In this document: positions 46,076-57,447 of the stretch, in pieces
Layout of the letters: every line of letters starts with the position of its first letter
Numbering within the stretch: position 1 is the first letter of the stretch
From: Thermoanaerobaculia bacterium
GTDB taxonomy: Bacteria > Acidobacteriota > Thermoanaerobaculia > Gp7-AA8
Assembly: GCA_036389275.1 (NCBI GenBank)
Contig: DASVQE010000009.1
Span: forward strand, 30,568 to 94,567
DNA length: 64,000 nt
Direction of reading: 5' to 3'
The notes under the pieces: generated by a model
What the model was told of the DNA's origin: nothing
Databases searched by the model: none
The model's input: the letters and a program-made list of their open reading frames with translations, nothing else
Program-made: the position numbers and the translations under genes

Positions 46076-47614
46076 ATGCCCTCTTCCAGCAGGAAGGACT
46101 CTACTCCGGAAAGGACCGCGAGAGCTGCACGCGCTGCGCAGCGTTTCGCCGCGCTCACCGAGGCGTACGTAGAGCGCTTCGACCGGGCTGAAGTAAACAC
46201 GAGGTTGAAGCTGTTCATCGTCAGCCGAGGCGTTACGGTGAGCGATCTCGCCCGGGAGGCTGGCATCAGCCGCAACCACGTTCGCCTTGTCGCCAGTGCC
46301 GAGCGCGAGCCGTCGCGGCGCAAAATGGCGACGATCGTGTCCGCCGCACGCCGGCTCACGTTCGAGCCGGTCAGGACTGAGAATTTATTTGAGTTAACGG
46401 CCGAGGAGAGTGGTACTTGGTTCCTCGCGAAAGATCGAAATAAGGCGATACGCGCGGCTGCAGCGAGTGCGGCACAACTCAAACTGGCGCGCGAACGCCT
46501 CATCGCCGTTGCGCACCATCGGCCGGTGTCGGAATGGCCGACGCGGCTCATGAGGCATCCGCAGGGCGTGAACGTTGCGCTTATCCGCTCGCTCCTAACG
46601 CTCGCTTACCGTACGCTCGACGCTGAGCCCCGCCTAGGCGATGAAATCGCCGACGTGGCGGCTAGTCTCGTCGCGGCCTTACCGGATACGGTCACCGCCG
46701 AAGTTAAAGTGATGATACGAGCCGTAGCGCTGCTGTACCGCGCCTACGCCTCACGGTCCCTCGGCCGGTATGACGAGGCAGCGGCTTTGCTCGACGCCGC
46801 CGAACGCGAAGCCGAACGAACGCCCTACTGCGCTAACGAACTCGCTCGCGTTTGGTATGAATGCGCGGCGCTTTGCGTCCTGAGAGGCGACGTACGTAAC
46901 GCCGAGCGGCACGCGAATCGCGCCATCACGCTTTTCACGGTGCTCGGCGACGTTCACCGGGTCGGCCGAACGCAAAATCTGATGGGAAGCGTCAGGTATG
47001 TCTCCGGTGATGTTGCGGCCGCTAGGGACCTTTGGTTAGCAGCGTACGACCGAATGCGAACAGCCGAGGACAAGAGTGCGCTCGCCGGGATCGCGCGAAA
47101 TCTCGGTGCCGCAGAGACACTCGTCGGAAACGTTGATGAGGCAAGAAACTGGCTCGATGAGTCCGAACGAATGTTTGTAGCACTTCGTCTCCCGACAGAA
47201 CTGACGCGCGTTCGGTGGGCAAAGGCGAAGCTGCAACTGGTCCTCGATCGTGGCGAAGGGGTGTCTCTCCTTAAATCGGTTCGCGCGGAATTCGTACGAC
47301 GAAACATGCCGACAGACGCCGGTTTCGTGGGCCTCGACATCGTTGAAGCTCTTCTCGACGATGAAAGCCGTAGCGAAGACCTTATTGCGCTCGCGCGCGC
47401 GACGGTCGGGGCATTCGAAAAAGCAGGGGCGACGCCGCGAATGCTCGAAGCGCTCAGCTACCTTCGTCAAGCAGTCCAGCGTCAACGCGCGACGAGTGAG
47501 CTTGTCGGAGAAGTCCGTGACTACCTTGCCGAAGCGTTGCGCGGGACGAACCTTCCGTTCGCCCCGCGCGACAGTGTCACGGCTTCGGAATCGACAACAT
47601 GCTCGACAGAATGA
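46076..47614 (+). CDS. XRE-type HTH plus TPR transcriptional regulator (RRNPP-like architecture)
   Basis: TRLKLFIVSRGVTVSDLAREAGISRNHVRLVASAEREPS HTH, then about 8 TPR-like helical repeats. Confidence 0.82.
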   Translation: MPSSSRKDSTPERTARAARAAQRFAALTEAYVERFDRAEVNTRLKLFIVSRGVTVSDLAREAGISRNHVRLVASAEREPSRRKMATIVSAARRLTFEPVRTENLFELTAEESGTWFLAKDRNKAIRAAAASAAQLKLARERLIAVAHHRPVSEWPTRLMRHPQGVNVALIRSLLTLAYRTLDAEPRLGDEIADVAASLVAALPDTVTAEVKVMIRAVALLYRAYASRSLGRYDEAAALLDAAEREAERTPYCANELARVWYECAALCVLRGDVRNAERHANRAITLFTVLGDVHRVGRTQNLMGSVRYVSGDVAAARDLWLAAYDRMRTAEDKSALAGIARNLGAAETLVGNVDEARNWLDESERMFVALRLPTELTRVRWAKAKLQLVLDRGEGVSLLKSVRAEFVRRNMPTDAGFVGLDIVEALLDDESRSEDLIALARATVGAFEKAGATPRMLEALSYLRQAVQRQRATSELVGEVRDYLAEALRGTNLPFAPRDSVTASESTTCSTE

Positions 47615-47651
47615 CTATGATCGGGATCAAAACGACAGGATCGAACGGCAC
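47577..47651 (-). CDS. 24-aa hydrophobic peptide MPFDPVVLIPIIVILSSMLSIPKP (candidate signalling peptide or type I toxin)
   Basis: RBS GGGAGGAGG (47666-47658) 6 nt before GTG 47651; TGA at 47579-47577; overlaps the 3' end of the HTH-TPR gene convergently. Below the ORF-track size cut-off. Confidence 0.55.
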   Translation of the reverse strand: MPFDPVVLIPIIVILSSMLSIPKP

Positions 47652-47811
47652 AGACGTCCTCCTCCCGCGCCGCCGCAGCAGCGCGATGTTTGAGATGTGT
47701 GGAGGGCGCCCTCTCCAAGAGGAGGAGTGTCAGATCGCGCGCTGGCGATATCACGGCTTTCGGGATTTCGGCGCGGGGTTCGGTATACTTCGCAAACCTC
47801 TTCACACGCCG

Positions 47812-48321
47812 ATGACGGACCCTTCTTACGCGCCGCGGCCCGACGACTCGGACCCGTTCGTGGCTGCGTACCGACAGCAGTTCGAGTTCTTACGTCTGCT
47901 TGCGACGCAGCGGTTCGGCATTCCGGTCGCTGACGCGGAGGCGATCGTTCAAGAGGTATTCGTCACGTACCTTCGGCGTCAACCGCATGTCAATGACGAA
48001 CGGCAGTGGCTCATCGCAGGAGTCTGTAACGCGTCGCGCGCGTACTGGCGATCCGTTGCCAAGCATGACGCATTACGCGATGGGCGCAGCCCGGCGCCAC
48101 CCCATTCCGAACGCATCGGGTCGCAACTCGATGCGCGTACGCTGCTGCGGCGCCTACCGCGCAAGTGTCGCGAAGTGTTGCGGCTGAAGTTCTACGACGA
48201 TTTGAGCGCCGCCGAAATCGCTGATCGCTTCCACACTTCGACCGGATACGCGAAGCTCATGATCCATCGCTGTCTCGCGGCAGCGCGTGACCTTCTTCGC
48301 GGTAGAGAGGGCGCATCTTGA
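47812..48321 (+). CDS. ECF sigma-70 factor
   Basis: DAEAIVQEVF, WLIAGVCNASR and LPRKCREVLRL...LSAAEIADRF; TATACT at 47784-47789 upstream. Confidence 0.88.
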   Translation: MTDPSYAPRPDDSDPFVAAYRQQFEFLRLLATQRFGIPVADAEAIVQEVFVTYLRRQPHVNDERQWLIAGVCNASRAYWRSVAKHDALRDGRSPAPPHSERIGSQLDARTLLRRLPRKCREVLRLKFYDDLSAAEIADRFHTSTGYAKLMIHRCLAAARDLLRGREGAS

Positions 48322-49673
48322 AAGGTTCGCACTACACCCGCGATGACTTTCTTGCATACCTCGATGGGAACGAAGACGTGGCTGATCCGGCCGCCATCGA
48401 TGCTCACCTTGAACATTGCGCCACTTGCGCTTCGGTCTTAGCTCAGGTGCGCGAAGACTACAAAATACTAAGCGATCCTGCGCTGTGGGAGCAGGCATTG
48501 GACACCGTCGGTGCAGCGAGGTCAGCGCGTGACGATTTGGCGCGTGAGGAGCATCTCAAGTTTGCGCTTGACGACCATCGCCGCCGAGCGGCTGAGGTAG
48601 CTCAGGCGGAACTCACCTTCGCTGAGCTGTCGAGCAGGTCGCCCGATGTTTGGCTGGAACACCTCTTTGCGCTGCCGGCGGAGCGTACCGACAGCTTGGT
48701 AATGCGTGTGGTTCAAGAGGCGCGCGCGATCGAGGAACAAGCGCCGCTTGAGGCGCTCCGACTGCTCGACGCGGCGCAAGCAATCGTGCTCGTCATCGAC
48801 GACGAACAGATTACTGCGGCGACCATCGGAGCCATCTGGAAGGAGCGGGCGAACACGCTGACGGCCCTCGGCGACTACGCGGCAGCGCTTACTGCATTAG
48901 TCGAAGCTGAGCGCGAGTACGCGCGCTCCATCGTAGCCCCGTACGATTTAGCTCTGGTCGATTGGGCACGAGCAAACGTGTACTTTCAGATGGGCGAATA
49001 TTCGCGAGTGCTACCGTTGACGCGGGAAGCTAAACGAACGCTGCGTAGGTTCGGCGACACGCTGCGCGCCACGCACGTCCAGGTACTCGAAGCGTGTACG
49101 GTTCATGAACAAGGTAATATCGAGCGTGCCGAGGAAATGTATCTTGCTCTTCTAATAAAACTTCAGAACTTCGGAGACGAGATTACATCTGCGCGAGTGC
49201 TTGCGAATCTCGCGTGCTGCAGGCTCCAACGAAATGATTTGATGGCGACCGAGGCATACGCCGCACGTGCGACTGCGATTTACGCTAAGCACGGCCTTGA
49301 CACGGAGATTACGCGCACTCGATGGGCGCTCGCTAAGGCGCTGCTTGCGCGAGGCGACAGAGACGCAGGCGTAGCCGCGCTTGGCCGCATAGCCGCGGAA
49401 TTCGAGAGCCTAGGGATGAGTACTGACGCAGCAGCCGTCCGCCTCGATATCGTGGAAGAGCTGATAAACGGCGAAGAGTACGCTCGTGCCGCCGAACTTG
49501 CGACGCAGGTCGCTACGACGTTCGCACTGGCAACAGAAAAGCTCAATCTTTCGAAGGCGTTGGACGCGCTACGACGAGCGACCGTCGAGCACCGCCCGAC
49601 GCGGGACCTGATTCGCGAAGCCCGGCACATCCTAATGCATCCGCACCTCCACTCCCTCCCGCCATCAGCGTAG
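48318..49673 (+). CDS. zf-HC2 anti-sigma-like protein with soluble TPR domain
   Basis: FLAYLDG...IDAHLEHCATC, then TPRs; TTGA overlap with the sigma gene; no TM segment. Confidence 0.82.
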   Translation: MKGSHYTRDDFLAYLDGNEDVADPAAIDAHLEHCATCASVLAQVREDYKILSDPALWEQALDTVGAARSARDDLAREEHLKFALDDHRRRAAEVAQAELTFAELSSRSPDVWLEHLFALPAERTDSLVMRVVQEARAIEEQAPLEALRLLDAAQAIVLVIDDEQITAATIGAIWKERANTLTALGDYAAALTALVEAEREYARSIVAPYDLALVDWARANVYFQMGEYSRVLPLTREAKRTLRRFGDTLRATHVQVLEACTVHEQGNIERAEEMYLALLIKLQNFGDEITSARVLANLACCRLQRNDLMATEAYAARATAIYAKHGLDTEITRTRWALAKALLARGDRDAGVAALGRIAAEFESLGMSTDAAAVRLDIVEELINGEEYARAAELATQVATTFALATEKLNLSKALDALRRATVEHRPTRDLIREARHILMHPHLHSLPPSA

Positions 49674-49793: not shown

Positions 49794-49956
49794 TCACACT
49801 ACTTTATGGCGGTGGTGTGTGGCACGTCTGCTCTCTCCTTGAACCGATACCGACACTGACGATCCGATGACACCCTTTGGACACCTCAACATTTCTGCCT
49901 TCACCACCACCACCGCCACCATCGGGAAGACCATTCCAGACCTGCAGGAGCTAATG

Positions 49957-52900
49957 ATGATGCGCCTTTCTCAAATCGCCGCTGGACAGAGTCTCTATCG
50001 GTCAACGAACGTCCGCCGCGGCCAGTCGGAGGTGGAACCCAACCACCGTCTCCTAGCTCTGCGCGAGCGCGTGCGTCACGCGTCAAGGCGCTTCCGACCG
50101 CTCCTCAAACTGCGTAGTTCCCGCGCAATCGTGATCGCGCTAGTTGCAGTGCTCAGCGCGTCGATGTCAGCAGCGGGCGCGACCACAGCGTTTCAACGTG
50201 TTGTGACGCTAACCGGCAGTTCTTCCTCGCACGATGTATTCAAGCGTCCCACAGGTGCCGCCGTTTCGCTCTCCGACGGCACGGTATACATCGCGGATCG
50301 TCAACACCATCGCGTGCAAGCGGTCTCGCCTGACGGTCTGACGCGGCCGGTCGCGCCGAGCACGAGCTTCGTAGACCCGACCGCTGTCGCCGTGTCGCGT
50401 GACTTTCTGTACATCACGGACGGCAACGCCATCCGTCGTATATCGCTCGCCGCGGGCGAGGCCGCTTCCACCGTGGCCGGTTCAGAAATGCCGGACGGTC
50501 GCGACGGCGTGGGACCCGCGGCCGGCTTCAAGCAGCCGATGGGCCTCGCATTCAATCAGCGTGGCGAGATCGTCGTAGCGGATACGGGCAATCACAAAAT
50601 CAGATTGGTGACACCCACCGGCGTCGTGAGCACTATCGCCGGAGATGGTCGCCCAGGCTTCACTAACGGGTCCACCGCCATTGCGCAGTTCAAGGGCGTC
50701 GAGGGCGTGGCAGTGGCGCCAGACGGCACGATTTACGTCGCAGATACCGGCAACCACACCATTCGTGGCATCAGGAATGGCGCCGTGTTCACCGTCGCCG
50801 GTACGGGCCAACCCGGCCTACTTGACGGCGAGGCGAACCTCGCGTCCTTTAAGGAACCTTCGAGCGTCGCGATTGATGACTTCGGCACACTTTATGTCGC
50901 CGATAGAGGTAATCACGCGATCCGACGTATCAGCGATGGAGTCGTCAGTACGGTTGCTGGTACGGGCATTCCCGGCTTGGTCAACGCTACTGATGTCGCT
51001 CACGCGCAATTCGCGTTCCCCAGCGGTGTTGCAGCCGCGGGCGCGTTGTATGTAGCCGACAGTGGGAATGACGCATTGCGCGTGCTCTACCCGTCACTGG
51101 CGTTGAGCAGCGTAGAACCGCGCCGAGGAGATCCTGCTGGCGGTGAGATCCTGCACCTCTATGGTATGGGCTTCGTGCCCGGTGCGACGGCAGTTACCGT
51201 CGGCGGCGTTGGCGTCGCGGCAACATACGTTTCGTCGACGGAGCTTGTCGTGACGGCTCCGCCGCACGCGATCGGATTCGTCGACGTTGTCGTGACGACG
51301 CCGGCCGGATCGCGGACGCTTGTAAACGCGTTTGAATACGTCCCGCCGTTCGTCGCGATCGTCATCAGCCCGTCGAATCCGCGACTCGATCCACACGCAA
51401 CCGTGCAGTTGTCGGCGAGTGGAGTCACAGCCGGCGGCACCGCTACGGACATTACGCCACGGGTTGCTTGGAACAGCGACGCACCGGCCGTTGTCACCGT
51501 GGATGCCAGCGGCCTTGCCGAGGCAAAGGCGCCCGGCACCGCCACGATCACTGCGTCACTCAATGCACTCGCCGGCTCGACCACGGTCACGGTGCGGCAA
51601 CCGGAACCGGTACCGCCGGACCCGGTCACGACGGCGCCGCCGCTCGCGACCAGCGCGACAACCTCGTTCATCGGCTCGACCGAATTTCTCTACAGCGGCC
51701 CGGACGCCATTCAGCAAGCCGTCGCACCCGGAACGATCAAGCCGCTGCGCTCCGCCGTCATTCGCGGTCGCGTTTTCACGCGAGACGGACAGCCGCTGCG
51801 CGCAGTACAGGTCACCATCAGCAAGCGCCCCGAGTACGGATCGACCGCAACGCGCGATGACGGCCGGTTCGACATCGCTGTCAATGGCGGCTCACCGCTC
51901 GTCGTGCGTTACGAGAAGAACGGCTACATCGGCGCCGAGCGCACGGTGCTCGTGCCGTCGCAGGACTTCGCGTTCGCCACGGATGTCGTGCTGTCCGCCC
52001 TCGACGCGACCGTCACCACCGTTGCGGCGTCCGCGTCAGCCGCCCAGGTCGCGCGTGGATCGCTCATAACCGATGCATCCGGCTCGCGGCAGGCCACGCT
52101 CGTGTTCTCGTCGGCGACAGCTACGACGTTGCGGCTTAGCGACGGCACGACTGCGAACGTACCGGAGCTGCACGTTCGCGCGACGGAGTTCTCCGTCGGT
52201 GCTGACGGGCCGAAGGCAATGCCGGCCGCGCTACCGCCGCAGAGCGGTTACACCTACTGCGTCGAACTGAGCGCCGATGAAGCAATCGCGGCGAATGCGA
52301 AAAGCGTGCAGTTCTCCAAGCCGGTCTCGTTCTACGTCGAGAACTTCCTCGGATTTCCGGTTGGTCAACACGTGCCGGTCGGCTACTACGACCGCGACCG
52401 GAACGCATGGTTGGCGATGCCCGATGGGCGCGTCGTGCGGGTTGTGACGGTTGACGCTGGTGTTGCCCATCTTGATACCGATGGCAACGGCACCGCGGAT
52501 GATGCGGGCATCGCCACTGAAGAGTTGCAGCGGCTCGGCGCGCTCTACGCGCCCGGCGCGACGCTCTGGCGCGTCACGACGACACACTTCTCGTCAATCG
52601 ATCTCAATTGGGCTTGCTCATTACCACCTGACGCGACACTTCCAAAGGGTCAACCGACTTATTACGCGCCGCGTGATAACGCCTGCACGACCGGCGGCTC
52701 GATCATCGAGTGTGAGAATCAGACGCTCGGCGAAGATGTCGGGATCACCGGCACGTCATTCGCGCTTCACTATCGCAGCGACCGCACCGAAGGTCGGGTC
52801 GCTTCGCGCACGATCGACATCCCGGTGACGGGCGACACGGTCCCGGCGAGCCTGAAACGTGCGGAGCTCGAAATCTCGATTGCCGGAACACTGACGCGGC

Positions 52901-55900
52901 AGTCATTCACAAGCTCACCGAAGCAGACCTATCACTTCGTTTGGAACGGCCGTGATGCGTACGGCCGCGTGGTACAGGGCGGCGCACCGATCACAATTCG
53001 CACCATCTACTACTACGACGGTTTTTATCAGGTTCCGACGCAGGCTACATTCAGCTTCGGGCAGACCAGCGGCATCGCCGGAACCAGCTCGAGCCGCATT
53101 GAAGTCACGACGACCGCGCAGTGGCAAGGCCACTTGGGCGCGTGGCATGCGACGGGCGACCGTATCGGCGGCTGGACGATCACGCCGCATCACTTCTATG
53201 ACGTGACGACGAAGACACTCTATCGCGGCGACGGGTCGCGCAAATCGGCCATGCCGCAGCGGTTCGGCGCGCCGCAGGGCACGTTCACGCCGATCATGGG
53301 CAAACCGGGTGTGCGCGACGCGAAATGGACCGGAAACGGCGGACCGGCGAAAGACGCGACCTTCTCCTACATCACATCCATGAAGGTAGGCCCGGACGGC
53401 ACGCTGTACATCGGTAGCGCCGAATACATTCACAAGATCACGCCGGACGGGACGCTCGTCAGGATCGCAGGGAACGGGGCAGGTGGAGTGCCGACGACTA
53501 CCGAACGCGCCGCCACGGGTCCAGCGCTGCAGACGCGCTTCTATTTCCCTGACAGCATTGCAGTCGCACCGGACGGGACGCTCTTCGTCGCCGAGCCGTT
53601 CCTGAATCAAATCCGCGTGATCACGCCTGACGGCACCGCGTCGCGCTATGCCGGGACGGGCGTCTCGGGCCGTGGCGGCGATGGAGTACCGGCCGCACAA
53701 ACGCCGCTCGCATTGCCGTCGAGCGTCGCGCTGGCGCCGGACGGTTCGCTGTACGTTGCCGAGCCGGAAGCGAACCGCATCCGGCGCATCACACCGGACC
53801 GCCTTGTCTACACCGTCGCGGGCTCAGGGCTGCGCACGTATTCGGGCGACGGAGGCCCGGCGCTCAACGCAGGTCTGGTGTCTCCGCGGGCGCTGACGCT
53901 TGCCTCCGATGGGACGGTCTATTTCTTCGACGCTCTCAGCAGCACGGGATGCCGCATTCGCCGCGTTACGACAGACGGGATGATTTCCACGGTTGCAGGC
54001 GGCGTCCCATGCAGATCATCCACCGGCGACGGTGGCGCGGCTGCCGACGCTCTGGTCAGCATCAATAACATCGAATTCGGCGGGCTGGCGGTAGGACCAG
54101 ACGACTCGATCATTTTCGTCGAGCAGCGCCCGACGAGTCGCGTCCGCCGCATCGATCCGTCCGGCACGATTGACACGGTACTCGGCTCCGGGACGCTCGG
54201 CAGCATCACGCCGGGCGCGTTGGCGACGGGCACGGATATCGGCCCGTCGTATGCGCTGGCGGTCGCGCCGAACGGCACGATGTACTTCGCCGACGATGAA
54301 GACACGCCGACGAACAGCGTGCTTTACAAAGTCGAACCACCGCTGCCACCGTTCACCGGCACAAGCAGTGAAATTCGTATTGCGGATGGTGATCTCGTTT
54401 ACGTCTTCACGGAAGGCGGGAGGCACTTGCGCACGTTAGCGCGCGATACCAACGCCACCCTCTACAGCTTTGGCTACGACGGCGACGGCGTCATGACCTC
54501 CATCACAGACTTCGACGGTAATGTGACTCGCATCGAACGCAGCGGCGGCGACGCGACAGCGATCGTCGCGCCGGGCGGGCAGCGGACCGAGATTGCCGGT
54601 GCCCCGTACGCTACGACCATTACGACAGCACCCGGTCAGACGACAACTTTTACTTACGCCGATGGCCTGATGCAAACCCTGACGGATTCGCGACGCAATA
54701 CAACGAAGTTTGAGTGGGACGAACTCGGCCTCTTGCGTCGCGACAGCGATCCGGAAGGCGGAGCCAAGACGCTCACCCGTCGCCCTACTGCGGACGGTCA
54801 CGAGGTCGCGATTGCGACCGCTGGCGGTCGGACGACGCATTACACAGCGGACGTGCTAAAGACCTCCGATCATCTGATCACCGTGGTTAGTCCCGCCGGA
54901 CTGATCGCCACGACTCTCGAAGGGAAGAACGGCGTGACGACCTCAGTACGGCCGGATGGTGCAACGAGGAGCGTCAGACTTGCGCCTGACCCCGTGTCGG
55001 GCATGCTTGCTCCATTCGAAGCCGAGTCCGCCATGATCTTTCCGAGTGGCCGCACATTTGTGATGTCGTCGACCAGTAAAGCCACGATGCTTAATCCGTC
55101 TACGCCCGCGACGCGAACCGAGACGTTCACGGTCGCGGGCAAAACATTCACCCGCTTGTTCGATATCGCGAAGCTGACGGAGCAGTGGATCACACCGACT
55201 GGTCGGACGATGGCGGGGACAGTAGACGCAGCCGGTCGTCGGCGCTCGACCTCGATCCCCTCGCTCGCGACCGTCTCGTTCACATACAACTCAAACGGAA
55301 CGCTCGCTAGCGTCGCGCAGGGTTCGAGAAGTCAAAGCTTTGCATACAACGCGCGCATCGAACTGACGTCGATGACAGACGCGCTGCACCGCACAACCAG
55401 TTTTGAGTACGACAACGCCGGCCGGGTCACGAAAGAAATTCTCTCCGACCTCCGTGAGATAACGTTCTCGTACGACCCTGCAGGCAACCTGCTGTCTGTA
55501 ACGCCGCCGGGCCGGCCGTTATACGGATTTGCCTACAACAAAGTGAATCTGCCGACACTCTACGCACCGCCACGTGTACTCAACGGCGGAGCGACGGTGT
55601 ACCACTACAACGCAGACCGCGAACTAACGTCGATCGAGCGACCCGACCGCTCGACGATTGAACTCGGTTATGACGGCGGTGGGCGCCTAACGTCTCTGAC
55701 GTGGCCTTCTGGCGCGCTTACATATGACTATTTGTCGTCGGGTGCGCTCCACGTCATAAGTGGTGCCGAGGCTTCCCTAACATACGACTACGACGGTTCA
55801 CTGCTGACTGGAGTCGCGTGGACAGGTGCTCTGAGTGGCTCAATTAGATGGGCATATACACCCGAGTTGCTCATCGCGTCGGAGACAGTAGGCGGCGATT

Positions 55901-57447
55901 CGGTAGACTTCGGCTACGACGACGACGGCCTGCTGGTCAGCGCCGGCGCCTTACATGTGTCGCGAAACGCAGCCGGACTGCCCGACGCAAGCTCACTCGG
56001 CGTCGCGCAAGACGTCCTCACGTTGAACGAATACGGCGAGGCGTCTAGCTACAGCGCCAGCGCGAGCGGCGCCGAACTGCTCGCCTTCGACTACACACGG
56101 GACGACGCTGGTCGCGTGATCGGCATTGTCGAGCGTACGCCGGCCGGCGAGACGACCACAGGCTACTCGTATGACAGCGAAGGACGCCTGACTGACGCAG
56201 TTCACGCTGATGCTAGCGTGCACTACGACTACGACGATAACGGCAACCGCGTTGCGCGCCACGTCTTCACCACGTCCGGTGCGACAACTGAGACGATGGC
56301 GTACGACGCTCAGGACCGGCTTCTTAATTACGAAGGAACACAGTACACGTATACAGCCAACGGCGAACTACTGAGTAAGACCGACGCTGTGGGCACAACT
56401 CGCTACGAATATGATGCTCTCGGCAACCTGAGGCGCGTCTCGCTCCCTGACGGCGCCTCCATCGAATACATTATTGACGCGCAAAACCGGCGCGTAGGCA
56501 AGAAGCTCAACGGTACTCTTACCGCGACCTGGCTTTACGCGGACCAGTTCCGCATCGTAGCCGAACTGGACCCAACGGGCGCCGTCGTCAGCCGTTTCGT
56601 GTATGGCTCTCATTCGACCGTACCCGATTACATGATACGGAGCGGCGTAGCGTACCGCATCTATACAGACCATGTAGGGAGCCCTCGCGTAGTTGTCGAT
56701 ACTACGACCGGCATGGTCGCGCAATTAATGGCCTACGACGAGTTCGGGAACGTAGTTCAAGATACAAATCCGGGGCTGCAGCCGTTCGGGTTCGCAGGCG
56801 GCCTTTATGACGCTTCGACCGCCCTCGTACGCTTCGGTGCGCGCGACTACGATCCGCATACCGGCCGATGGACATCTACGGACCCGGCTGGGTTCGCGGC
56901 TGGGTCGGCGAATCTGTACGGCTACGCATCCAACGATCCCGTGAACCAAATTGACCCCTCAGGTTTGGTCACGCTACCGGTTGTCGGATGGGTAGATACA
57001 GGCGAAACGTCAGGCGAGGCCGCCCTCGAAGCATACGCTGACACTCTGACCGACCCAGATGCCGCGTGGTATTCGAAAGCGGGTGCGGCGGTCGGCGGAA
57101 CGTTTGCCGCGTTATGGACTCGCAAGACGAGCGATGCCACGGCGACGACGCTCGTGTGCGCGTACAGTACGGCTGGAGTCGCGGCACGCCGACCCTACTG
57201 GCGTTATACTGGACCGAGATCCAAGCCAGAGGGTCCGTGGCTAACCCGCGGCTGGCGACCGCCGTACGGGAACAATTTCACGCGCGCGAAGGACGCCCTG
57301 CAGTTGCCCGAAACGCCAACAGGCGTGGTTCAGGTGACGCCGGGGCCGCTCGAACCGGTAGCGGGGCCGCGAGTGATTAAGGGAAATCCGCAGTGGGGCA
57401 CCGGTGGTGGCGTGGAATACTACCGCGGGTTCCGCTTTCCGAACTAG
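49957..57447 (+). CDS. bacterial teneurin-like RHS/YD-repeat protein with C-terminal toxin domain
   Basis: RBS AGGAG before MMM (49954-49962), N-terminal TM/signal, NHL propeller, IPT/TIG, Big_2, teneurin TTR-like domain (IRGRVFTRDGQPL..V...PEYGST.TRDDGRFDIAVNGG), FN-plug (YHFVWNGRDAYG; IGGWTITPHHFYD), second NHL, YD repeats, and RHS core NLYGYASNDPVNQIDPSGL. Confidence 0.92.
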   Translation: MMRLSQIAAGQSLYRSTNVRRGQSEVEPNHRLLALRERVRHASRRFRPLLKLRSSRAIVIALVAVLSASMSAAGATTAFQRVVTLTGSSSSHDVFKRPTGAAVSLSDGTVYIADRQHHRVQAVSPDGLTRPVAPSTSFVDPTAVAVSRDFLYITDGNAIRRISLAAGEAASTVAGSEMPDGRDGVGPAAGFKQPMGLAFNQRGEIVVADTGNHKIRLVTPTGVVSTIAGDGRPGFTNGSTAIAQFKGVEGVAVAPDGTIYVADTGNHTIRGIRNGAVFTVAGTGQPGLLDGEANLASFKEPSSVAIDDFGTLYVADRGNHAIRRISDGVVSTVAGTGIPGLVNATDVAHAQFAFPSGVAAAGALYVADSGNDALRVLYPSLALSSVEPRRGDPAGGEILHLYGMGFVPGATAVTVGGVGVAATYVSSTELVVTAPPHAIGFVDVVVTTPAGSRTLVNAFEYVPPFVAIVISPSNPRLDPHATVQLSASGVTAGGTATDITPRVAWNSDAPAVVTVDASGLAEAKAPGTATITASLNALAGSTTVTVRQPEPVPPDPVTTAPPLATSATTSFIGSTEFLYSGPDAIQQAVAPGTIKPLRSAVIRGRVFTRDGQPLRAVQVTISKRPEYGSTATRDDGRFDIAVNGGSPLVVRYEKNGYIGAERTVLVPSQDFAFATDVVLSALDATVTTVAASASAAQVARGSLITDASGSRQATLVFSSATATTLRLSDGTTANVPELHVRATEFSVGADGPKAMPAALPPQSGYTYCVELSADEAIAANAKSVQFSKPVSFYVENFLGFPVGQHVPVGYYDRDRNAWLAMPDGRVVRVVTVDAGVAHLDTDGNGTADDAGIATEELQRLGALYAPGATLWRVTTTHFSSIDLNWACSLPPDATLPKGQPTYYAPRDNACTTGGSIIECENQTLGEDVGITGTSFALHYRSDRTEGRVASRTIDIPVTGDTVPASLKRAELEISIAGTLTRQSFTSSPKQTYHFVWNGRDAYGRVVQGGAPITIRTIYYYDGFYQVPTQATFSFGQTSGIAGTSSSRIEVTTTAQWQGHLGAWHATGDRIGGWTITPHHFYDVTTKTLYRGDGSRKSAMPQRFGAPQGTFTPIMGKPGVRDAKWTGNGGPAKDATFSYITSMKVGPDGTLYIGSAEYIHKITPDGTLVRIAGNGAGGVPTTTERAATGPALQTRFYFPDSIAVAPDGTLFVAEPFLNQIRVITPDGTASRYAGTGVSGRGGDGVPAAQTPLALPSSVALAPDGSLYVAEPEANRIRRITPDRLVYTVAGSGLRTYSGDGGPALNAGLVSPRALTLASDGTVYFFDALSSTGCRIRRVTTDGMISTVAGGVPCRSSTGDGGAAADALVSINNIEFGGLAVGPDDSIIFVEQRPTSRVRRIDPSGTIDTVLGSGTLGSITPGALATGTDIGPSYALAVAPNGTMYFADDEDTPTNSVLYKVEPPLPPFTGTSSEIRIADGDLVYVFTEGGRHLRTLARDTNATLYSFGYDGDGVMTSITDFDGNVTRIERSGGDATAIVAPGGQRTEIAGAPYATTITTAPGQTTTFTYADGLMQTLTDSRRNTTKFEWDELGLLRRDSDPEGGAKTLTRRPTADGHEVAIATAGGRTTHYTADVLKTSDHLITVVSPAGLIATTLEGKNGVTTSVRPDGATRSVRLAPDPVSGMLAPFEAESAMIFPSGRTFVMSSTSKATMLNPSTPATRTETFTVAGKTFTRLFDIAKLTEQWITPTGRTMAGTVDAAGRRRSTSIPSLATVSFTYNSNGTLASVAQGSRSQSFAYNARIELTSMTDALHRTTSFEYDNAGRVTKEILSDLREITFSYDPAGNLLSVTPPGRPLYGFAYNKVNLPTLYAPPRVLNGGATVYHYNADRELTSIERPDRSTIELGYDGGGRLTSLTWPSGALTYDYLSSGALHVISGAEASLTYDYDGSLLTGVAWTGALSGSIRWAYTPELLIASETVGGDSVDFGYDDDGLLVSAGALHVSRNAAGLPDASSLGVAQDVLTLNEYGEASSYSASASGAELLAFDYTRDDAGRVIGIVERTPAGETTTGYSYDSEGRLTDAVHADASVHYDYDDNGNRVARHVFTTSGATTETMAYDAQDRLLNYEGTQYTYTANGELLSKTDAVGTTRYEYDALGNLRRVSLPDGASIEYIIDAQNRRVGKKLNGTLTATWLYADQFRIVAELDPTGAVVSRFVYGSHSTVPDYMIRSGVAYRIYTDHVGSPRVVVDTTTGMVAQLMAYDEFGNVVQDTNPGLQPFGFAGGLYDASTALVRFGARDYDPHTGRWTSTDPAGFAAGSANLYGYASNDPVNQIDPSGLVTLPVVGWVDTGETSGEAALEAYADTLTDPDAAWYSKAGAAVGGTFAALWTRKTSDATATTLVCAYSTAGVAARRPYWRYTGPRSKPEGPWLTRGWRPPYGNNFTRAKDALQLPETPTGVVQVTPGPLEPVAGPRVIKGNPQWGTGGGVEYYRGFRFPN

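Follow-up and report, generated by a model that had tools for sequence, protein, structure and literature searches.

In streptococci, signalling by Rgg/SHP (short hydrophobic peptide) and ComR/ComS, which belong to the RRNPP family, combines a cytoplasmic receptor, built of a helix-turn-helix (HTH) and a tetratricopeptide repeat (TPR)-type domain, with an adjacent, unannotated peptide gene of 17-25 codons, and in both systems the conserved C-terminal 7-9 residues of the peptide are the signal. A convergent, overlapping arrangement of the two genes is said to have been reported by Fleuchot et al. 2011 for group III shp/rgg loci. SHP export depends on PptAB, Eep carries out the cleavage and Ami/Opp takes the peptide up again (PMC7564271), and the output of ComRS is the alternative sigma factor SigX (PMC4497675). 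Cytoplasmic TPR receptors that read encoded peptide signals are regarded as a hallmark of the Bacillota and of the phages and plasmids they carry (PMC10075063, PMC7564271); a survey of RRNPP assigns these systems to Bacillota and their mobile elements and does not mention Acidobacteria (PMC10075063). Among anti-sigma factors, DdvA carries TPR repeats and is a transmembrane protein (PDB 8rw5, PMC11506125). The re-classification of extracytoplasmic function (ECF) sigma factors lists soluble anti-sigma factors in 10 groups and TPR only in the ECF42 extension and in a FecR-like protein, and describes no arrangement of a TPR sensor with a peptide (PMC7826278).

Here we analyse a 64,000-nucleotide (nt) stretch of the Thermoanaerobaculia contig DASVQE010000009.1, referred to below in its full length as the window, and in it a four-gene module that resembles Gram-positive peptide quorum sensing rebuilt, in soil Acidobacteriota, around a sigma factor switch. 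In it, an HTH-TPR regulator and an oppositely oriented 24-codon peptide gene are followed by an ECF sigma factor and by a soluble zinc-finger anti-sigma factor with a TPR sensor of its own. Like Rgg/SHP and ComR/ComS, it places an unannotated short gene beside a cytoplasmic HTH and TPR-type receptor, and the conservation of the peptide is likewise C-terminal. Comparison of homologous and paralogous loci leads us to propose, with moderate confidence, a signalling role for the peptide, with one TPR sensor or both as its receptor. The genes of the module and the Shine-Dalgarno (SD) sequence of the peptide gene are as follows:

46076..47614, plus strand: HTH-TPR regulator, 512 aa, C-terminus ...FAPRDSVTASESTTCSTE
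47577..47651, minus strand: peptide gene, 24 codons and TGA, product MPFDPVVLIPIIVILSSMLSIPKP
47658..47666, minus strand: SD sequence GGGAGGAGG, with the 6-nt spacer ACGTCT to the GTG start
47812..48321, plus strand: ECF sigma factor; the open reading frame (ORF) is open from 47599, the start is ATG 47812 (MTDPSYAP)
48318..49673, plus strand: soluble zinc-finger anti-sigma factor with TPR sensor (HLEHCATC), overlapping the sigma stop by 4 nt (ATGA)

The minus-strand ORF starts with GTG-CCG-TTC, reads M/V-PFDPVVLIPIIVILSSMLSIPKP and ends with the stop TGA at 47577-47579. It overlaps the 3' end of the regulator gene by 38 nt (47577-47614). The original prediction, made from the letters of the window alone, had described this convergent 24-codon ORF with its SD, 6-nt spacer, GTG start and 38-nt overlap, and was exact in all of these details.

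For comparison, loci were drawn from the window's genome and 60 relatives, a large protein collection, soil metagenomes and two further genera. A peptide ORF of 18-25 aa was found in the same place in all 19 related loci with a readable 3' flank, which come from three genera of one Thermoanaerobaculia family and from soil metagenomes. The first five loci inspected each revealed an ORF of 19-23 codons behind an AGGAGG-type SD, on the opposite strand, between the regulator stop and the next gene; they encode MPVEAELLLLIVVIYSRLTVPHG, MSPLMIELLVLAASIMSIPKP (L012), MTEIAIVLALLVLAGRMGVPIP, MYLTIAIITWLVLGSRISVPNG and MEFLLALIVLYSRISIPHG. In L042, where the regulator is 51% identical to that of the window, the peptide is MSFELIATLIILASILSIPKP. 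Further peptides from the protein collection, the metagenomes and the two additional genera are MDPLVLLAIIVLASRMSIPNP, MEYVELALLLLVLASRLTVPHG, MLDLLLDLITLSSKISVPDP/NP, MDTAMLLILDFFVTLASKMSVPNP, MLELELLLLIWIASRISVPHPVS and MSEVEILLALIVLYSRLSVPHG, and other loci showed the C-terminal variants ...SRMSIPNP, ...SRLTVPHG, ...GRMGVPIP and ...SKISVPDP. SDs of the AGGAGG type precede the start by 5-9 nt in 16 of 16 tabulated peptide genes, and weaker, G-rich SDs occur in a few further loci (L016, L030). The family follows a common pattern, with an acidic-hydrophobic N-terminal part and the C-terminus [RKM]-[ILM]-[STG]-[IV]-P-x-[PG]. Thus the conserved antisense ORFs with a ribosome binding site and an xSxPKP-like end, which the original prediction had named as its check beside homologs of the regulator, are present in L042 and L012 and, with variant ends, in all other homologous loci. 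The C-terminus had also been singled out as the portion that may be the mature ligand, and conservation indeed resides in the C-terminal 7-8 residues; for the window peptide, the predicted signal portion is (S)MLSIPKP.

The 24-codon ORF is a genuine gene under purifying selection. The pooled ratio of nonsynonymous to synonymous polymorphism (pN/pS) over the last eight codons was 0.53 for type A, the group of the window, and 0.13 for type B, the second group, as compared with 1.08-2.65 for the same DNA in shifted frames, and synonymous codons vary at conserved peptide residues. A strict scan of both strands of the 5.19 Mb genome, requiring an SD, a hydrophobic core and the C-terminus [IVLMF][STGA][IVL]Px[GP], returned the window ORF as its sole match; a loose scan of the genome returned three ORFs, two of which adjoin TPR paralogs. 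The short peptides are not present in a collection of 15 billion proteins and were therefore never called by gene callers, and Pfam and NCBIfam scans assigned no family to them or to the long forms described below. Locus L013 (G007:C21; flipped coordinates 2135-2203 and 2362-2430) has two short peptide genes in a row, which encode MTEIAIVLALLVLAGRMGVPIP and MTEIEMLLLLLVFASRIGVPIP and occupy the interval that separates the regulator from the sigma gene.

The sigma gene was assigned by a Sigma70_r4_2 match of 37.1 bits (cut-off 25.7). ECF/SigE-family and TIGR02937 models of NCBIfam match residues 85-234, below their trusted cut-offs. The start at 47812 is backed by the L042 homolog, which begins MSDAAYAP, and translation of the long ORF, which is open from 47599, probably does not begin at its first ATG. 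The anti-sigma factor has an N-terminal H-x3-C-x2-C motif and a zf-HC2 match of 24.1 bits (cut-off 22.2); its AlphaFold2 (AF2) model has a pLDDT of 86.5. Its maximum Kyte-Doolittle value over 19 residues, KD(19), is 1.52, and no transmembrane segment was detected in the regulator, the sigma factor or the anti-sigma factor. In locus L040 (G028:C3:2386433-2387431) the anti-sigma-TPR gene contains an in-frame TGA and may be a pseudogene or reflect an assembly error.

The sensor of the anti-sigma factor aligned with the sensor of the regulator with a BLASTP E of 2e-18, and in hhalign with a probability of 100 and E 1e-62 over 373 columns. By these alignments, the two TPR sensors are paralogs, and the proteins differ only in their N-terminal output domain, which is an XRE-like HTH in the regulator and a zinc-binding anti-sigma (ZAS) domain in the anti-sigma factor. 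The gene order is fixed, with the HTH-TPR gene first, the oppositely oriented peptide gene second, the ECF sigma gene third and the gene of the zinc-finger anti-sigma-TPR protein last. Maximum-likelihood analysis of 48 sensor domains placed the HTH-TPR proteins (100/97) and the anti-sigma factors of the same loci (100/98) in two monophyletic clades with mirrored branching orders, and the parts of the module have therefore been inherited together. In L016, which belongs to the anti-sigma clade, an upstream HTH-TPR gene is missing and the divergent peptide gene, MLLIDLIVILSRISIPIG, is retained; the link of the peptide to the sigma/anti-sigma pair is therefore no looser than its link to the HTH-TPR regulator.

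In the regulator, a long helical linker joins a divergent XRE-type HTH (residues ~40-118) to a TPR superhelix (~125-490). Pfam detected TPR_12 with 43.4 bits (cut-off 30.1). The HTH_3 match was weak (E 0.013, below cut-off), and a profile of the HTH region from 16 homologs found as its best PDB matches only XRE HTH proteins, with E values of 0.017-1; the indications of an XRE-type HTH output domain are thus weak but consistent. An AF2 model built on six homologs (pLDDT 88, pTM 0.81) shows a small N-terminal helical domain with short helices at 43-95, a long helix and the TPR superhelix, with 17 paired helices. The last 13 residues (500-512) are disordered in the model (pLDDT ~33) and not conserved, which fits the earlier proposal that this end of the regulator is a by-product of the overlap with the peptide gene. 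The start chosen by the gene caller, TTG 46205, would remove the conserved T42-R43. Searching the window's genome and the 60 relatives with the regulator revealed a much expanded TPR domain in the genus and few full-length homologs with the HTH, at 26-37% identity. The HTH also occurs on its own. The window's genome encodes a stand-alone 73-aa paralog (MATRLERFLKSRGIKPAHLARESGYSRQHLL...; C43:35629-35850, minus strand), followed by a receiver-domain gene, and similar HTH-only proteins of 86-168 aa are found in G098 and G128. In the metagenome protein P0018 (901 aa), a full HTH-TPR regulator is naturally fused to a second TPR sensor domain, the profile matching two stretches of the chain.

Other sigma/anti-sigma-TPR modules also have linked peptide genes; in the window's genome this applies to five of five modules. 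In one anti-sigma-TPR clade, a co-directional short peptide ending in ...YHRLSIPG[ST] directly follows the anti-sigma gene in 7 of 7 loci. Examples are MEAVLLFSALVVLYHRLSIPGT and, from the window's own genome, MEVIVIMALVFLRHRLSIPGS (C78:19052-19117, plus strand; locus L002 2704-2769), the gene of which lies ~110 nt past the anti-sigma-TPR gene. Most other sigma/anti-sigma-TPR loci of the genus have one to three tandem genes for proteins of 56-96 aa, composed of a classical Sec signal peptide, a polar spacer and a cationic amphipathic helix, with the motif at or near the C-terminus. This motif, xS/T-I/V-P-x-P, is the same as in the short peptides, and the C-termini of the long forms include ...HALGDMLTIPRP (three copies on C104), ...GDGLTIPRP, ...DDIIIPRP, ...SLVVPRP, ...DIVIPIPAPDKP and ...GGITIPVPRPTDPNAEQ. 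On C104 of the window's genome (4807-5536; L003 2638-3367, minus strand), three tandem Sec-signal genes of 56-59 aa follow a sigma/anti-sigma-TPR pair and end in ...GDMLTIPRP, ...GDGLTIPKP and ...GDGLTIPRP. As the same motif is carried by Sec-signal propeptides of paralogous modules, the sequences indicate that it leaves the cytoplasm in those modules. The short forms lie in two separate clades of the tree, and therefore arose at least twice; in both, only a hydrophobic leader and the motif are retained, which points to the motif as the functional part.

Comparison of the loci further identified a conserved upstream element and hairpins, which we list with a hexamer found by inspection:

47539..47569, minus strand: GC-rich 13-bp hairpin, 7 nt past the peptide stop and within the last codons of the regulator
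47701..47729, minus strand: upstream element of box and palindrome, CACTCC-N12-AGGGCGCCCTCC, 50-78 nt before the peptide start
47784..47789, plus strand: putative -10-like hexamer TATACT, 22 nt before the sigma start, conserved in homologous loci

The 73-nt stretch containing the hairpin has a folding energy of -33.8 kcal/mol (z = -3.0). Comparable hairpins of differing sequence lie 3' of the peptide ORF in 13 of 14 loci, and the hairpin is a candidate terminator for the peptide transcript. The upstream element, in its full form CACTCC-N-AGGG(CG)CCCTCC, sits in the divergent region that the peptide gene and the sigma operon share. The composite CACTCC-N6-16-AGGG(CG)1-2CCCTC occurs in exactly two copies in the 5.19 Mb genome (47701-47729 and C49:10159-10184), each located 45-80 nt before a TPR-linked peptide gene, and the peptide genes of L025 and L029 are preceded by the same motif. 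It may be a promoter or operator common to the peptide genes. A role of the palindrome as a dedicated operator of the HTH-TPR regulator was considered and ruled out, as the same element precedes peptide genes in genomes in which no full-length HTH-TPR protein was detected. A scan for consensus promoters and terminators across 47400-47950 gave no match, and for this reason we infer the promoter assignments from the comparisons and inspection above. Since ATG 47812 has no SD and TATACT lies only 22 nt upstream, the sequence suggests that the sigma mRNA is very short or leaderless.

If the peptide is a signal, the acidic-hydrophobic N-terminal part of the pre-peptide would be a leader for export or processing, and the conserved C-terminal heptapeptide (MLSIPKP in the window) would be the signal proper. 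Binding of the heptapeptide by the TPR sensor of the anti-sigma factor would change the activity or availability of the sigma factor, and binding by the paralogous sensor of the HTH regulator would alter transcription from the divergent control region of peptide and sigma genes. The logic would be that of ComR/ComS to SigX or of Rgg/SHP, rebuilt independently by a diderm phylum and coupled there to a sigma/anti-sigma switch. We infer export, processing, re-entry into the cell, binding of the peptide to the TPR domains and the sign of regulation by analogy with ComR/XIP acting on SigX and with the export, cleavage and re-import of SHPs. A bolder form of this proposal appears doubtful to us and is put forward tentatively. 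It posits a diderm peptide-pheromone system for communication between cells that evolved independently of RRNPP in Bacillota, in which one exported heptapeptide would address two paralogous cytoplasmic TPR receptors, a transcription factor and an anti-sigma factor, as a two-key gate on an ECF sigma regulon that possibly includes an RHS-type toxin, and in which the many parallel peptide/anti-sigma channels of a genome would be separate pherotypes.

A candidate for such a target is the gene that follows the module core:

49867..57447, plus strand: giant NHL/TIG/RHS-type protein with NHL, TEN_NHL and TIG domains; variable cargo, outside the module core

The downstream cargo varies from locus to locus, and an RHS-type gene (DUF6531; L042 7886-10033) was otherwise found only in the closest relative, L042. 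The giant RHS-type protein could be a target of the sigma factor.

Several observations weigh against a signal read by the TPR sensors. The module brings along no exporter, protease or importer of its own, and the heptapeptide has an outer membrane to cross as well. On the other side, five OppA-family binding proteins are encoded in the window's genome, which favours the reading. Directly after the anti-sigma-TPR gene, an OppA-like gene was found in one of five loci checked, the other four having none; this is the OppA/DppA-family SBP_bac_5 gene in G128:C30 (L066 3862-5499, L067 162-1874; E 3e-76), on the same strand and with no permease genes beside it. The N-terminal parts of the peptides contain 31 acidic and 3 basic residues, as opposed to 1 acidic and 23 basic among the last eight residues. 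The lack of the basic N-terminus of SHPs, pointed out in the original prediction, thus extends to the family, and according to the positive-inside rule the C-terminus would remain cytoplasmic if the peptide were inserted into a membrane. Of 24 family members, 23 have a longest uncharged stretch of 6-15 residues, and several contain internal Asp or Glu, which makes a membrane span unlikely. Similarity between regulator and anti-sigma TPR domains is not consistently higher within a locus than across loci (within-locus rank 1-7 of 9), a result that speaks neither for nor against a common ligand. Neither Pfam nor NCBIfam gave a sequence-family tie to RRNPP, and models of Rgg, Rap, NprR, PlcR and AimR had no match there at E up to 0.1. 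In favour of the reading, both AF2 models are confident TPR superhelices of a kind that accommodates extended peptides in the groove. Among bacterial structures they come closest to the peptide-bound pheromone receptors Rap (phi3T, pLS20, RapF/H/I/J) and NprR, with TM scores of 0.4-0.6, which is moderate and no better than for eukaryotic TPR proteins. The overall top fold matches of both models are the peptide-binding TPR domains of LGN/Pins and kinesin light chain (KLC), and DdvA (8rw5) is among the fold matches. Judged by these models, the structural likeness to RRNPP receptors is generic to TPR proteins.

Some of these points would suit a micropeptide that is not secreted but acts inside the cell, soluble or membrane-associated with its C-terminal tail in the cytoplasm. 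It would regulate the TPR proteins directly, for example by tethering or titrating the anti-sigma factor, and no signalling between cells would take place. The missing exporter and importer, and an acidic N-terminal and basic C-terminal part that suit an N-out/C-in topology, are compatible with such a partner, and short extended or C-terminal peptides are commonly bound by TPR domains, as in the LGN, KLC and APPBP2 C-degron matches. With uncharged runs of mostly 6-15 residues and internal Asp/Glu (MLDLLLDLITL), the peptides are nevertheless too short and polar for a membrane span, and the motif is evidently exported in the paralogous modules that carry it on clear Sec-signal proteins. We therefore regard a non-secreted partner as unlikely, though it is the alternative that survives best. 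Within it, the membrane-anchor variant was down-weighted on account of the short hydrophobic runs and the internal acidic residues.

The peptides might instead be outputs of the sigma regulon, such as exported effectors or bacteriocin-like peptides, or carriers of a C-terminal tag for sorting or processing, with the TPR domains sensing another ligand. ECF operons frequently adjoin their targets, the long forms with their cationic amphipathic helix and tandem copies look like bacteriocin precursors, and the common upstream element could be a sigma-dependent promoter. The 18-25 aa forms, however, have no payload beyond leader and motif, yet constitute the most strictly conserved part. Moreover, the peptide C-termini change in step with the TPR clades, and no maturation or immunity genes are conserved nearby. 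An output role accordingly strikes us as rather improbable.

A type I toxin had been named as an alternative from the outset; the peptide would then be the hydrophobic toxin of a type I toxin-antitoxin-like system, its mRNA under antisense control by the 3' end of the regulator transcript. The small size and hydrophobicity of the peptide, its strong SD and the overlap of convergent genes in the window, L042 and L066 would agree with a toxin. The overlap is, however, limited to these three loci, with the genes 20-200 nt apart in others; most members have too short a hydrophobic run, with uncharged stretches of mostly 6-15 residues and, in several, internal Asp/Glu; the conserved C-terminal motif is polar and common to Sec-exported proteins; and the linkage to TPR proteins is strict. 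The toxin is thus disfavoured and we give it very little credence. Finally, a chance open frame without a product, conceivable since ORFs of 20-40 codons are common by chance in the 60-65% GC DNA of this window, is effectively refuted by the conservation with an SD in 19 of 19 loci, a synonymous bias only in this frame and the sole strict match in the genome, and has next to no probability left.

The signal-peptide reading thus remains the one we prefer. With regard to its distribution, an exhaustive profile search of metagenomes returned 520 clusters (50% identity) below E 1e-30, and both HTH and TPR were covered in ~45 of the 150 best-scoring clusters listed. A profile of the HTH domain matched in 3 of 401 sampled Acidobacteriota genomes, all from one family. 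The protein-family libraries and the papers searched contained no description of the peptide/TPR module, and further literature searches returned nothing on Thermoanaerobaculia. If the reading is correct, the logic of peptide and TPR receptor extends to a diderm phylum, and a soluble anti-sigma factor with a peptide-type TPR sensor is added to the modes of ECF sigma control. One and the same sensor domain would then have been connected to both DNA binding and sigma release as outputs, within a compact system of four genes and a candidate ligand of ~7 residues. Genes of 18-25 codons that were overlooked by every gene caller can be the key part of a regulatory module.

The closest described systems each share part of this arrangement. 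The original prediction of an Rgg/SHP-like pairing holds for layout and logic, and does not extend to sequence family, as no Rgg or RRNPP family was matched. Unlike the hosts of Rgg/SHP, which belong to Bacillota, the host is a diderm acidobacterium of the class Thermoanaerobaculia. SHP precursors have a basic N-terminus and a hydrophobic mature C-terminal part, whereas the N-terminal part here is acidic and the C-terminal part is polar to basic with a Pro motif. In contrast to Rgg and ComR systems, a second, paralogous TPR receptor is fused to the anti-sigma domain that would hold the ECF sigma factor. The paralogous modules are similar to Phr, PapR and AimP in pairing a TPR sensor with small Sec propeptides, often in tandem, that bear the motif at the C-terminus; they differ from Rap-Phr, NprR-NprX, PlcR-PapR and AimR-AimP in that the output is an HTH or zinc anti-sigma domain. 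With the ZAS pairs RsrA and ChrR, the module shares overlapping sigma and anti-sigma genes and an N-terminal H-x3-C-x2-C domain. Unlike DdvA, its anti-sigma factor is soluble, with a cytoplasmic TPR sensor of ~370 residues and a linked peptide gene. Membership of Rgg or RRNPP is not backed by sequence; what the layout supports, by analogy, is a functional analogue of peptide/TPR-receptor signalling joined to an ECF sigma switch.

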